From positions 108,218 to 172,217 of the IMG/VR virus record IMGVR_UViG_3300032205_000001: a DNA stretch of 64,000 nucleotides; one strand, given 5' to 3'. A model generated the notes under the pieces. The model worked only from the letters and a program-made list of their open reading frames with translations, was not told the origin of the DNA and did no database searches. Numbering within the stretch: the first letter of the stretch is position 1; each line of letters starts with the position of its first letter. The position numbers were made by a program, and so were the translations under genes. This DNA is from a virus (Duplodnaviria; Heunggongvirae; Uroviricota; Caudoviricetes). This document shows positions 2,792 to 6,079 of the stretch, in pieces.

Positions 2792-3073
2792 ATGGCAAAG
2801 AGGACTAAAAAAGAACAGCGCCAGCTGGAGGCCCAGTGGCGCGACGAGGAGGAGTACCTCAAGGAGGAGATAGAGCGCGACCTTGAGGAGAACGTGCGTC
2901 GTCTGTGGAAAACGACGCGGTGGTACCTCGGTCACGAGGAGTGGACCTTCTACCAGGGTTTCGAAGAGGACACCTGGTGCGGTTGCGACTGCAACAGGTG
3001 GAACCGCTTTGAGCTGCAGAAGGCGATCGATCGTCTACGAGCTTGGCGTGCCCGCAGGGAATACTGGATCTAG
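2792..3073 (+). CDS. hypothetical protein
   Basis: 93-aa ORF starting 3 nt after the tmRNA-like RNA. Confidence 0.6.
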   Translation: MAKRTKKEQRQLEAQWRDEEEYLKEEIERDLEENVRRLWKTTRWYLGHEEWTFYQGFEEDTWCGCDCNRWNRFELQKAIDRLRAWRARREYWI

Positions 3074-3164
3074 CGGAAGACGGCGGAGTCGAACCGCAAG
3101 CGAGTTCATCACCCGCTCCATCCCGCTTCCAACGGGCTCAGGCTCCACAGCCTGTTCATCTTCC
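3074..3164 (-). tRNA. tRNA-Ser(GGA)
   Basis: GGAAGAT acceptor, loop TTGGAAG, long variable arm. Confidence 0.85.
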
Positions 3165-3168
3165 AGTG

Positions 3169-3378
3169 CTACCGACGTCTAGCACGTTTTTCCGGTAGCT
3201 GTATGACCTGATTGCTATTGCGGCTCGTTTTCACTGGGAGCTTCCTGATCTCGGCGAGGCGACGGGGATGAGCCCGTTTGGCCTCTGTCGTCGTCCCGCA
3301 CTGTTGGCAGTACGTGACGTAAGCATTTTCCGTGTCGTGAACGTCGAGGTGATCGTAGCCGCAATTGAAACACTTCAA
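3169..3378 (-). CDS. zinc-ribbon protein
   Basis: CxxC...CxxC (CFNC, CQQC). Confidence 0.65.
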   Translation of the reverse strand: MKCFNCGYDHLDVHDTENAYVTYCQQCGTTTEAKRAHPRRLAEIRKLPVKTSRNSNQVIQLPEKRARRR

Positions 3379-3384
3379 GGTGTT

Positions 3385-4054
3385 TTAATCCCAGTCCCCT
3401 CTCAGGTACCTCTTGAGCTGCCACTGCTTGTTCAGCACGTGATCAGTGACAACGCCGTCCTGAGAACGGATCGTTCTGCGTTTGTCTCCCCGCATCCCCG
3501 AACCGACCTGTTCACGCCGCGAAGATGACGTTTGCGCAGAATGTTGGTTGTGTGCCGCATCCCAGAGTCTTGCTCGAAGAACCTCAAGCGCAGTTTCTTT
3601 GTTGCTGTGCTGAGATCTTTCAGACTCACATCTAACCGTGATCCCGCTCGGTATGTGCGTGAGCACGACGGCGCTATCCGTCACGTTTCGGTGCTGGCCG
3701 CCGGCCCCAGATCCACGACAGAATTTCCAATCCAGGTCGCCATCGTTGACGATGACCTGAGTCGGAGAGCGCTCGGGCAGAACGGCAACCGTGATGGTGC
3801 TGGTCTGCATCCGTCCACGCTTCTCGGTGGGCGGCACCCTCTGCCATCTGTGCCCACCTGATTCGTTGGCAAACGCTACATCGGAGCCCTTGCCAGAGGC
3901 CTTGAAGACAAGAAGGCCTGGTCTCTCGCTCACGATTTCGAGGTCAAAGACCCCTCCGAGCCCCCATCTTTGCGTAGATCGCAAACTGGTCGCGAACGAG
4001 TAATTTGGCATCATCGCCGCCCTCGGCGGCCCTAATTTCGACAAAAACCGACAT
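3385..4054 (-). CDS. class I peptide chain release factor-like protein (RF1-type PxT, GGQ; lacks domain 1), expressed via +1 programmed frameshift, 222 aa
   Basis: ORF1 from ATG 4054 MSVFVEIRAAEGGDDAKLL...RRGL ends at CTT-TGA-C (3949-3943); the +1 frame continues DLEIVSERPG...GGHRWQRVPPTE...GSGAGGQHRN. Confidence 0.9.
3943..3958 (-). promoter_or_regulatory. prfB-type +1 frameshift cassette (internal SD GGAGG, 3-nt spacer, CTT TGA C)
   Basis: Minus-strand CGGAGG-GGT-CTT-TGA-C; same layout as E. coli prfB AGGGGG-TAT-CTT-TGA-C. Confidence 0.85.
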
Positions 4055-4072
4055 CCACCGACCATAGCCGAT

Positions 4073-4240
4073 TCAGATGTCTATGACAATAATCGTCGAC
4101 TTAGGCTCTTCTTGTCGAGGGCGTTCCTCTGGTTCCCAGGGGTGATGCTCGATTTGCAGCGGGGCATGGATGTCCTGCTTTGGGCAATGCGGACAGTAAT
4201 GCCAGGCTGGCCTCGCATGAGGGCATAGCGGTATGTCCAT
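4073..4240 (-). CDS. small Cys/His-rich hypothetical protein (55 aa)
   Basis: Manual translation MDIPLCPHARPAWHYCPHCPK...; fills the gap between RNA ligase and RF. Confidence 0.5.
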   Translation of the reverse strand: MDIPLCPHARPAWHYCPHCPKQDIHAPLQIEHHPWEPEERPRQEEPKSTIIVIDI

Positions 4241-4258: not shown

Positions 4259-4876
4259 TCAGCTGTCGACGATCTTGCGACCTTCAACCTCGCCATATTT
4301 CGTCATGACGCGGTCGATCCATTTCTGGGTCTTGGCCTTCGACATGACGAGCTTATGTCCTTCTCCGCCTTTACCGACGACACCTTCTTCGGTGATGTCG
4401 GATATCTCTCCCTGTCGGACTTGGTCGACGAAGCCACGCGTCCATCGACGAGTGCCGAGAAATCTGGGAATGTTGAGATGCTCGAACAGCTTGAGAAATT
4501 GTTTCGGGCCGAGAATTCCCTTCTTGTACGGATTCACATCGAACAGGGTTAGCTGTTTTTCGTCTTCAGGTTCATGGAGCCCAGCGAACGAGCGAGGTCC
4601 CCAGAATTCAGTGAAAACGATCATCCGTTCCCATCGCTCATCGCGTGCGACCTTGATCAGTGGTTCAGCGAGAGTTCTTTCAAACACGGCGATGGCGCCG
4701 CCGAACACCTCGTCGGTTTCGTCAAACAAACGAGTGCGAGTGCCGTGCTTGTACCAGCCGCTCTTCCTGGCCCACTCCCAACGCAGGTTGGAACCGTCGA
4801 GCTTGTCGAAGACGTAGGCATCGAATTCTCGAAAGTCCTGCCCAGTGCTTCGCGGGATGGATGGATAGTCCTTCAT
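4259..4876 (-). CDS. ATP-dependent RNA ligase-like nucleotidyltransferase
   Basis: Motif I KLDGSN, EF(W)G motif, EGVV motif IV, C-terminal KAK. Confidence 0.8.
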   Translation of the reverse strand: MKDYPSIPRSTGQDFREFDAYVFDKLDGSNLRWEWARKSGWYKHGTRTRLFDETDEVFGGAIAVFERTLAEPLIKVARDERWERMIVFTEFWGPRSFAGLHEPEDEKQLTLFDVNPYKKGILGPKQFLKLFEHLNIPRFLGTRRWTRGFVDQVRQGEISDITEEGVVGKGGEGHKLVMSKAKTQKWIDRVMTKYGEVEGRKIVDS

Positions 4877-5915: not shown

Positions 5916-5998
5916 TGCCCCGGGCGGGAGTCGAACCCGCACGCTTTTTACGGCGCTCGTTTTTGAAACGAGTGTGTCTACCACTCCACCACCAGGGC
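5916..5998 (-). tRNA. tRNA-Leu(CAA)
   Basis: Loop TTCAAAA, variable arm. Confidence 0.88.
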
Positions 5999-6071
5999 GC
6001 ACGCGACCGGAATCGAACCGGCAACCTTCCCGTTGCTTAGGCGGGATGTTCTACCTTTGAACTACGCGAGC
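5999..6071 (-). ncRNA. aberrant tRNA with 9-nt anticodon loop (CCTAAGCAA)
   Basis: D and T arms normal; U3-U70 mismatch; no discriminator or CCA, abuts tRNA-Leu directly. Confidence 0.7.
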
Positions 6072-6079
6072 ATGAGCCG

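Follow-up and report, generated by a model that had tools for sequence, protein, structure and literature searches.

INTRODUCTION

Programmed +1 frameshifting at a Shine-Dalgarno (SD) element followed by CUU and a stop codon is the textbook property of a single gene, prfB, in which the site lies at codon 26, within domain 1. The strict use of UGA at that site has been the main argument for regarding prfB as an autoregulator of release factor 2 (RF2). Here, we report on a 64,000-nucleotide (nt) stretch of phage DNA (positions 108,218 to 172,217 of IMG/VR record IMGVR_UViG_3300032205_000001; the whole stretch is called the window hereafter, and its numbering is used for the gene), in which a gene at positions 3385 to 4054 of the minus strand carries a signal of the same type in a coding sequence of the release factor 1 (RF1) lineage.

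Among 8,164 genomes with the frameshift motif, the prfB gate is TGA in 98.6% and never TAG, and when more than 12,000 bacterial genomes were surveyed, no programmed frameshift turned up in prfA (Prince et al. 2025, PMC12421855). Bacterial release factor genes in which an early in-frame stop is followed by a continuation of the same frame (UGA for RF2, UAG for RF1) have been described as unknown, and the only precedent cited in that work is the eRF1 of one amoebal giant virus, which needs both readthrough and frameshifting (Atkins et al. 2016, PMC5009743). In the literature that we searched, we found no description of a +1 frameshift signal in an RF1-type gene. The analysis presented below indicates that the gene of the window is probably expressed by a programmed +1 ribosomal frameshift and that its output is thereby likely to be coupled to termination capacity.

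RESULTS

A prfB-type shift cassette would join two reading frames

On the minus strand of the window, the ATG at 4054-4052 opens a frame of 36 codons (open reading frame 1 [ORF1], 3947-4054), the product of which begins with MSVFVEIRAAEGGDDAKLLV and contains the segment EIRAAEGGDDAKLLV, corresponding to helix 5 of RF1. The frame runs through codon 36 (CTT) and meets a TGA in the heptanucleotide CTT-TGA-C (3943-3949; CTT at 3949-3947, TGA at 3946-3944, and C at 3943). Two Arg codons, CGG AGG, spell an internal SD-like GGAGG (3953-3957), and the 3-nt spacer between this element and CTT, GGT (3950-3952), is the codon that would occupy the E site when the shift happens. If one base is skipped, such that CTTT is read as a single step, ORF1 is joined to ORF2 in the +1 frame (residues 37 to 222, 3388-3945), and the resulting product of 222 amino acids (aa) ends at the TAA at 3387-3385. 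This layout, with the release factor motifs PPT and GGQ in the +1 frame, is as the sequence-only reading of the window had described it, and every component of the prfB-type signal named there, namely, CUU, a stop codon, a C at +4, and an SD-like element 3 nt upstream, is present.

The 15-nt cassette GGAGG-GGT-CTT-TGA-C (3957-3943, minus strand) was found once in the window, versus 0.01 copies expected from shuffles, and GGAGG-N2-5-CTTTGA has a single occurrence in the entire 175-kb genome.

The joined product belongs to the RF1 lineage and starts where domain 2 starts

When the joined product was compared with the NCBIfam model for RF1, it aligned in one stretch, with residues 2 to 221 covering profile positions 105 to 331 of 347 at 223 bits, and lower scores were obtained with the models for RF2 (128 bits), PrfH (91 bits), and ArfB (41 bits). 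The RF1 score lies below the equivalog cutoff of that model (TIGR00019/NF001859, 400 bits), and the product is shorter than a four-domain RF1; likewise, the PrfH score lies below the cutoff of TIGR03072 (166.65 bits). Pfam recognized the C-terminal half of PCRF plus the RF-1 domain. Among solved structures, the best matches were RF1 of Thermotoga maritima, Escherichia coli, and Thermus thermophilus (E value of about 1e-48), and the fold is thus already fixed. In a phmmer alignment to T. maritima RF1, the junction created by the shift, RRGL|DLEI, is placed without a gap against RKGW-NLEV.

ORF2 encodes the remainder of RF1 domain 2, domain 3 with the GGQ motif of peptidyl-tRNA hydrolysis (residues 118 to 120, 3694-3702), and domain 4. 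At the place of the RF1 PxT tripeptide, as defined by the alignment to T. maritima RF1, the product has PPT (residues 74 to 76, 3826-3834), within the sequence Q-R-V-P-P-T. The tip of helix 5, E11-G-G-D-D-A (residues 11 to 16, 4007-4024), is encoded upstream of the shift site and is aligned to GTGGEEA of the T. maritima protein. In RF1 structures, this stretch harbors the element responsible for reading U1 of stop codons. Together with Gln71, Thr76, and Thr84, it makes up the set of RF1 discriminators that we checked, and the window copy retains all of them.

An N terminus different from that encoded by ORF1 had been suggested by the ORF track, in which a single-frame ORF of 226 aa opens at an ATG at 4063-4065, outside the gene. 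That ORF matches the RF1 model only from residue 54 onward and scores 191 bits, 32 fewer than the joined product, the RF1 match of which begins at residue 2. These data agree with the sequence-only reading in two respects, that the N terminus of the ORF track is spurious and that ATG 4054 is the true start. Direct translation from ATG 4065 was rejected: its first 53 residues match nothing, the helix-5 tip would be missing, and the ATG is not conserved (see below).

The same order of scores, RF1 above RF2 above PrfH, was obtained for all 14 family members scored, i.e., the window copy and 13 others. On the evidence of these matches, the product is predicted to be a 222-aa class I release factor of the RF1 lineage without domain 1, starting where domain 2 of RF1 starts, in line with the RF1-type, domain-1-less factor that the sequence-only reading had proposed on the basis of PPT and GGQ. 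Since RF1 is the top-scoring model in all 14 members and GGQ is universal among the relatives described below (104 of 104), the family may be regarded as an offshoot of RF1 that has kept its catalytic competence. According to a passage in PMC1586002 that cites Mora et al. 2003, codon-specific release can proceed without domain 1, but RF3-driven recycling requires it. Since domain 1, which contacts RF3 and L11, is absent here, the phage factor should work without RF3.

The frameshift signal is conserved in the family

Relatives were collected from IMG/VR (35 loci), from metagenomes (80 of 359 matches), from genome bins, and from the GenBank huge-phage records LR745208 and LR745206, and 104 distinct proteins remained after removal of duplicates. 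The sequences are hosted by huge phages, metagenomes, and one myxobacterial chromosome. A +1 shift is needed in 83 of the 104, at TGA in 46, at TAG in 35, and at TAA in 2; a further 15 are in frame with an internal TGA or TAG, and 6 are in frame without any internal stop. Some form of gate is therefore kept in 98 of the 104. Conservation in homologs was a check that the sequence-only reading had itself set, with homologs in frame at this site as the outcome that would speak against it, and 83 of the 104 relatives are out of frame there.

Within the 83 frameshift relatives, the shift falls at alignment-equivalent codons 32 to 36 in 78, the P-site codon is CTT in 82, and the stop is followed by C in 72. 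GGAGG is present in 60, and the spacer measures 3 nt in every one of these. The two Arg codons behind GGAGG are CGG in 66 of 78 relatives and AGG in 61 of 78, compared with 16% and 12% of Arg codons genome-wide; at the shift codon, CTT is used in 77 of 78, compared with 22% of Leu codons genome-wide. This constraint on synonymous sites argues for selection on an mRNA signal. The Arg-Arg pair is missing from the aligned in-frame relatives L008, L009, and L011 to L013.

ORF1 itself evolves as a frame-0 coding sequence, since differences among relatives are concentrated at the third codon position (11312, versus 5179 at the first and 3594 at the second). In 52 of 78 relatives, the +1 frame, where it is open upstream of the shift site, offers no ATG at which translation of this part could begin independently, and ATG 4065 is missing in the nearest relatives, L003, L004, L005, and L063. 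Moreover, locus L061, an independent assembly that is 95 to 96% identical to the window, retains the shift site despite adjacent synonymous changes. An assembly error or a pseudogene was rejected on the grounds that 83 independent sequences share the +1 break together with a conserved signal and that ORF1 shows coding constraint. To the extent that sequence by itself can decide, artifact, pseudogene, and direct translation are excluded, and we consider it very probable that the frameshift is programmed.

Four distant members carry the shift site, as CTT-TGA or CTT-TAG, 10 to 15 codons further downstream (L033 at ~3139, L034 at ~3145, L145 at ~1073, and L146 at ~3139 of the respective loci), and these displaced sites suggest that the device was rebuilt at a second position.

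The gate codon changes while the decoding elements do not

Parsimony on a maximum-likelihood tree obtained by a quick search gave about 20 interchanges between TGA and TAG gates, at least 7 to 8 of which are forced by well-supported branches. The seven members of the window's own clade illustrate this, with TGA in the window, L061, L003, and L063 and TAG in L004, L005, and L064. TAA, the necessary intermediate between TGA and TAG, was seen only twice. Since TAA, which both host release factors read, is nearly absent (2 of 83) and since C is kept at +4, selection seems to favor a stop that is terminated slowly.

The decoding elements do not follow these switches. PPT, the commonest form of the tripeptide in the family, occurs in 26 of 46 TGA forms and 25 of 35 TAG forms. 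The helix-5 motif xxEGGxDA is recurrent, and its five commonest variants, all AAEGGxDA, account for 61 of the 104 relatives. In the sister pairs with different gates (L014/L138, L080/L100, and L111/L112), the decoding loops are near-identical, and in some pairs identical. Just one residue, residue 37, is linked to the gate, and it is dictated by the overlapping codon. No covariation of the gate codon with decoding residues was found, in an independent-pairs test that had 6 well-supported pairs and was underpowered.

Thus, the claim of the sequence-only reading that the cassette is specifically an RF2/UGA sensor is not supported in that form, given gates of TGA in 46, TAG in 35, and TAA in 2 relatives that switch without change in PxT or helix 5. 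Because the gate flips without covariation, two possibilities follow: the factor may act on UGA as well as on UAG, or the gate may report the activity of host RF1 or RF2 rather than being closed by its own product. For the window copy, an RF1-type product stands behind a UGA gate, whereas autoregulation would call for a gate stop that is read only by the gene's own product.

Stop codon usage was compared with gate identity, based on greedy ORF calls. TAG makes up 36 to 38% of stops in two TAG-gate genomes versus 27 to 31% in three TGA-gate genomes, which are few and related, and 35% of neighboring genes end in TAG beside TAG gates versus 25% beside TGA gates (P = 0.12). Stop usage is shifted in the direction of the gate, although this is only a trend.

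The PxT loop is not kept throughout the family. A 4-residue deletion, aligned to 3826-3840 of the window, removes it in L001, in the L004/L005/L064 group, in L012, and in L031, and these lineages, which include the sister group of the window, keep both GGQ and the gate. In about 16 further relatives, the Thr of PxT is replaced (PPN, PPS, SPL, or PKN).

Some relatives carry in-frame stops at the shift position

In a well-supported clade, an in-frame stop lies exactly at the shift position, as TAT-TGA-C in L070, L079, L092, L094, and L099, as CTA-TGA-C in L011, and as TAT-TAG-A in L009. Elsewhere on the tree, L012 has CTC-TGA-C in frame at the same position. The position corresponds to about 3106 or 1606 of each locus. 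TGA is the commonest stop of the genes that neighbor the loci with a single in-frame TGA, ending 55% of them, and the whole genomes G002 and G003 show neither an excess of in-frame TGA nor a UCA tRNA. For these reasons, the members with a single in-frame stop look like candidate readthrough gates rather than products of recoding. A search of the in-frame-stop phage genomes for a T4-type portal gave no match.

A low-GC clade (L002, which comes from LR745206, and L021, L023, L126, and L142) differs in having two in-frame TGA codons in the release factor gene, at alignment codons 42 and 50. Since neighboring genes almost never end in TGA there (1 of 21), these are probably TGA-recoded phages with an RF1-type factor. 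Such a combination is described for Jade phages.

Suppressor tRNA genes were noted in several family-carrying phages, with anticodon tta in G002 (182322-182397) and anticodon cta in G003 (111560-111633) and in L026 (4725-4801), the last lying ~1 kb from the release factor gene. In G002, isolated in-frame stops with a coding signal on both sides comprise 23 TAG, 9 TGA, and 6 TAA codons, which hints at partial recoding of TAG in this genome.

Genome, neighborhood, and distribution

The window is part of the contig of a T4-like phage, 175,284 bp long with a G+C content of 56.6%, which encodes a T4-type portal along with a DnaB-like helicase and a RecA-like protein. Every one of its 47 tRNA genes is on the minus strand, within 319 to 21045, and no suppressor tRNA is among them. 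By greedy ORF calls, TGA ends about 50% of the genes across the genome, TAG 28%, and TAA 22%, and isolated in-frame stops with a coding signal on both sides are few. An alternative genetic code was considered for this phage and rejected, since long genes are intact, no suppressor is present, TGA ends about half of the genes, and in-frame stops are few; with the standard code, UGA is to be taken as a real stop. The frameshift gene is the sole gene with a release factor domain in the 175-kb genome.

A pair of sigma-70-like -35 and -10 elements (TTGTCA, 17 nt, TATGGT) lies at 4061-4089 on the minus strand and ends 7 nt before ATG 4054. Because the pair is so close to the start codon, the mRNA could be leaderless or nearly so. 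A -10-like GCTAKG block is kept in close relatives, at spacings to the start that differ among them.

Upstream of the release factor gene are a 57-aa ORF and then a 205-aa RNA-ligase-like ORF (PHROG 548; 4259-4876, minus strand), which has a KxDG-type motif, DKLDGSN, and matches only the N-terminal nucleotidyltransferase half of the PHROG; its family is not that of RtcB. An analogy to the PrfH-RtcB pair through this neighbor was rejected, given that the ligase gene adjoins the release factor gene in just 3 of 37 related loci and that no RtcB was found in the 175-kb genome.

About 2 kb upstream of the release factor gene, on the same strand, is a tRNA-shaped gene (5995-6072, minus strand) with a 9-nt anticodon loop (CCUAAGCAA or CUUAAGCAA), which also occurs in L003 (510-587) and L004 (1451-1525). 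ARAGORN called it tRNA-Leu(aag) in the window and tRNA-???(taag) in L003 and L004; it has no long variable arm and does not reach the Rfam tRNA threshold. What could be a CUU reader with an expanded loop, near a gene in which CUU is the site of the +1 shift, is suggestive. As a helper of the shift, the gene was nevertheless rejected: it is found in the window phage, in the L003 and L004 contigs, and possibly in G006 but is absent from the frameshift-type genomes G005 and G007, so that the family does not need it.

Turning to distribution, the family was absent from the cultured phages of the GenBank set, where only GGQ-domain fragments were detected, in Pseudomonas phages. One copy, L151 (CTT-TAG-C, 3001-3655), is located on a contig of 1,438,650 bp from a Myxococcales metagenome-assembled genome, beside a gene for an 868-aa TPR protein. 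Among the few neighbors scanned there, no tRNAs or other phage hallmark were found, and the other ORFs had no Pfam match. Because this copy lies on a megabase-sized Myxococcales contig, the family is not confined to viruses, and cellular chromosomes carry it too. Another member, L076, lies on a metagenome contig of 1.17 Mb.

DISCUSSION

A model for termination-dependent expression

From the layout of the gene and by analogy to prfB, the following sequence of events can be proposed. Ribosomes would initiate at ATG 4054, read 36 codons, and come to a pause while peptidyl-tRNA-Leu occupies CUU in the P site and the A site contains UGA-C, a weak termination context. During the pause, the internal GGAGG, 3 nt upstream, would pair with the anti-SD sequence of 16S rRNA. 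Two outcomes could follow: either host RF2 would terminate and release a 36-aa peptide, or the tRNA-Leu would slip from CUU onto UUU, whereupon GAC would be read as Asp37 and translation would continue in the +1 frame. The full 222-aa product would keep the decoding domain and GGQ and would do without domain 1, through which RF3 and L11 are contacted. The slower the termination at UGA, the more product would be made, and synthesis of the phage factor would be tied in this way to the termination capacity of the infected cell.

We infer that the shift is ribosomal and RF2-sensitive, and it is likely that it couples output to the speed of termination at UGA. Most likely, what the gate reports is how slowly a weak stop is terminated. 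By this logic, the yield of the window copy should fall as RF2 activity rises, and it may fairly be supposed that the phage factor is made only when UGA termination is weak.

Several points weigh against this reading. If the product has RF1 specificity, for UAA and UAG, a UGA gate cannot autoregulate, and this copy has less of a selective logic than prfB. With regard to feedback, the probability is shared among cross-regulation by RF2 of a factor with RF1-type activity, a broadened specificity, and a role in rescue. In close relatives, TGA and TAG gates replace each other while the decoding loops stay unchanged, and in about a quarter of the relatives, either the Thr of PxT or the entire loop is missing; gate flips and PxT losses together suggest that canonical RF1-type decoding may not be the conserved function. 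In addition, anti-SD pairing and the supply of the tRNA-Leu are assumed here for the host.

Alternative explanations

One alternative is true autoregulation, in which the product would be an omnipotent bacterial-type factor that terminates at UGA, UAG, and UAA and any gate would consequently close a negative feedback loop. All three stops do serve as gates in the family, the roughly 20 interchanges of TGA and TAG proceeded without a covarying decoding residue, the family tripeptide is PPT where the aligned T. maritima RF1 has PVT, and a gate has been retained in 98 of the 104 relatives, which speaks for a benefit from regulation. We nevertheless consider an omnipotent factor rather unlikely, since the RF1-type discriminators checked (Gln71, Thr76, Thr84, and the helix-5 tip) are all present, RF1 scores far above RF2 in every member scored, and PxT-deleted members also keep the gate. 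No known RF1 that reads UGA was found in the literature searched.

A second alternative is a rescue factor resembling PrfH or ArfB, codon independent or loosely codon dependent, which would free stalled ribosomes during infection while the gate senses stalling at stop codons in general; the proposed targets are unterminated stops, truncated mRNAs, and ribosomes with damaged decoding centers. Domain 1 is missing as it is in PrfH (PMC1586002), the gene lies in a tRNA island beside an RNA-ligase-like gene, and the gate functions with any stop. The PxT loop has been deleted recurrently, and its Thr has been replaced in some 16 further relatives, while GGQ stays in 104 of 104; altered specificity or rescue activity, both of which the sequence-only reading had put forward, would gain some support from this recurrent loss. 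However, the window copy keeps every RF1 decoding element, and its PrfH score of 91 bits is far from the cutoff of 166.65, compared with 223 bits for RF1. Besides, the genome has no RtcB, the ligase neighbor is present in just 3 of 37 loci, and the C-terminal tail of the ArfB type is absent, all of which make a rescue factor unlikely.

It could further be argued that the cassette is a fixed attenuator without any meaningful sensing, which merely sets a low, constant yield of a release factor that is harmful in excess. Overexpression of release factors does lower fitness (Prince et al. 2025, PMC12421855), and the identity of the gate appears to be only loosely constrained between TGA and TAG. 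But a weaker start signal would suffice for this purpose at no cost, and an SD element at exact spacing, CTT, a weak stop, and C at +4 have been kept across about 80 lineages, with TAA avoided. Related copies with in-frame stops at the same place would also make output dependent on termination. A fixed attenuator is thus improbable.

Finally, recoding might be absent altogether, with the gene a pseudogene, the break an assembly indel, or ATG 4065 the direct start of the 226-aa ORF. The one open frame at 3385-4065 of the window copy could be cited in favor, but the recurrence of the break, the coding constraint on ORF1, and the lack of conservation of that ATG make this very improbable.

Returning to a programmed, termination-coupled frameshift as the preferred reading, we note a broader version of it that is tentative but not far-fetched, in which the family is a termination-capacity sensor in three interchangeable builds (a +1 shift at UGA, a +1 shift at UAG, and readthrough of an in-frame UGA or UAG) that controls an omnipotent factor or one acting on stalled ribosomes. 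If this were true, the family would provide the first natural bacterial-type release factor with broadened specificity and the first bacterial-type release factor genes gated by readthrough, and the factor, having no domain 1, would furthermore depend on neither RF3 nor the L11 stalk.

Comparison with known systems

The closest described system is prfB, with which the window gene shares an SD element inside the gene, 3 nt upstream of the shift codon, CUU as the P-site codon, an A-site stop followed by C at +4, the +1 slip onto UUU, and the nature of the gene, which encodes a class I release factor. The differences lie in its lineage, which is that of RF1, in its being phage borne, and in the place of the site, which is in domain 2, at about position 140 of the RF1 profile or about position 151 of RF2. 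Since this site is not homologous to codon 26 of prfB, the signal had a second, independent origin. Also in contrast to prfB, TGA and TAG are almost interchangeable here. What is new, then, is that a prfB-type signal has arisen a second time, at another place and in the RF1 lineage, and that it is found with either UGA or UAG and coexists with versions that have an in-frame stop. While strict use of UGA underlies the case for prfB as an RF2 autoregulator, the phage family uses UGA or UAG, and it offers a set of natural variants for asking what such gates sense. The cassette is at the same time a compact and portable frameshift switch.

Release factor genes in huge and recoded phages provide a second point of comparison. 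They, too, are RF1 or RF2 genes situated among tRNA and translation genes (Al-Shayeb et al. 2020, PMC7162821; Borges et al., 10.1101/2021.08.26.457843), and our low-GC relatives L002, L021, and L023 look like the RF1 of TGA-recoded phages. Neither a frameshift nor an internal gate nor the loss of domain 1 is mentioned in those papers (PMC7162821; 10.1101/2021.08.26.457843), and the release factors were proposed there to support a code switch, whereas the window phage has the standard code and no suppressor. The family described here points to termination as a step under the control of large phages themselves.

With PrfH (RF-H, paired with RtcB2), the phage factor has in common a length of ~200 to 220 aa, the absence of domain 1, a preserved GGQ, and possibly a rescue-type role. 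It differs from PrfH in scoring below the cutoff of that family, in having an RF1-type PPT in place of the PrfH motif, and in having no RtcB partner; no mention of frameshifting in PrfH was found in Baranov et al. 2006 (PMC1586002). The likeness to ArfB and ICT1 is confined to the GGQ domain, with a score of 41 bits against the model for ArfB. Those proteins have no decoding domains 2 and 4 and probe the mRNA channel with a C-terminal tail, while the phage factor keeps domains 2 to 4.

A further viral parallel is the eRF1 of Megavirus and Mimivirus (Jeudy et al. 2012, PMC3521657), also a viral class I release factor that needs recoding at stops. The two cases differ in that the amoebal viruses use readthrough plus frameshifting, with other signals and for a eukaryotic-type factor of an unrelated protein family. 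Their likeness nonetheless points to control of a viral termination factor through the sensing of termination, and by this analogy, the phage family can be viewed as the bacterial-type counterpart of the Megavirus and Mimivirus case.

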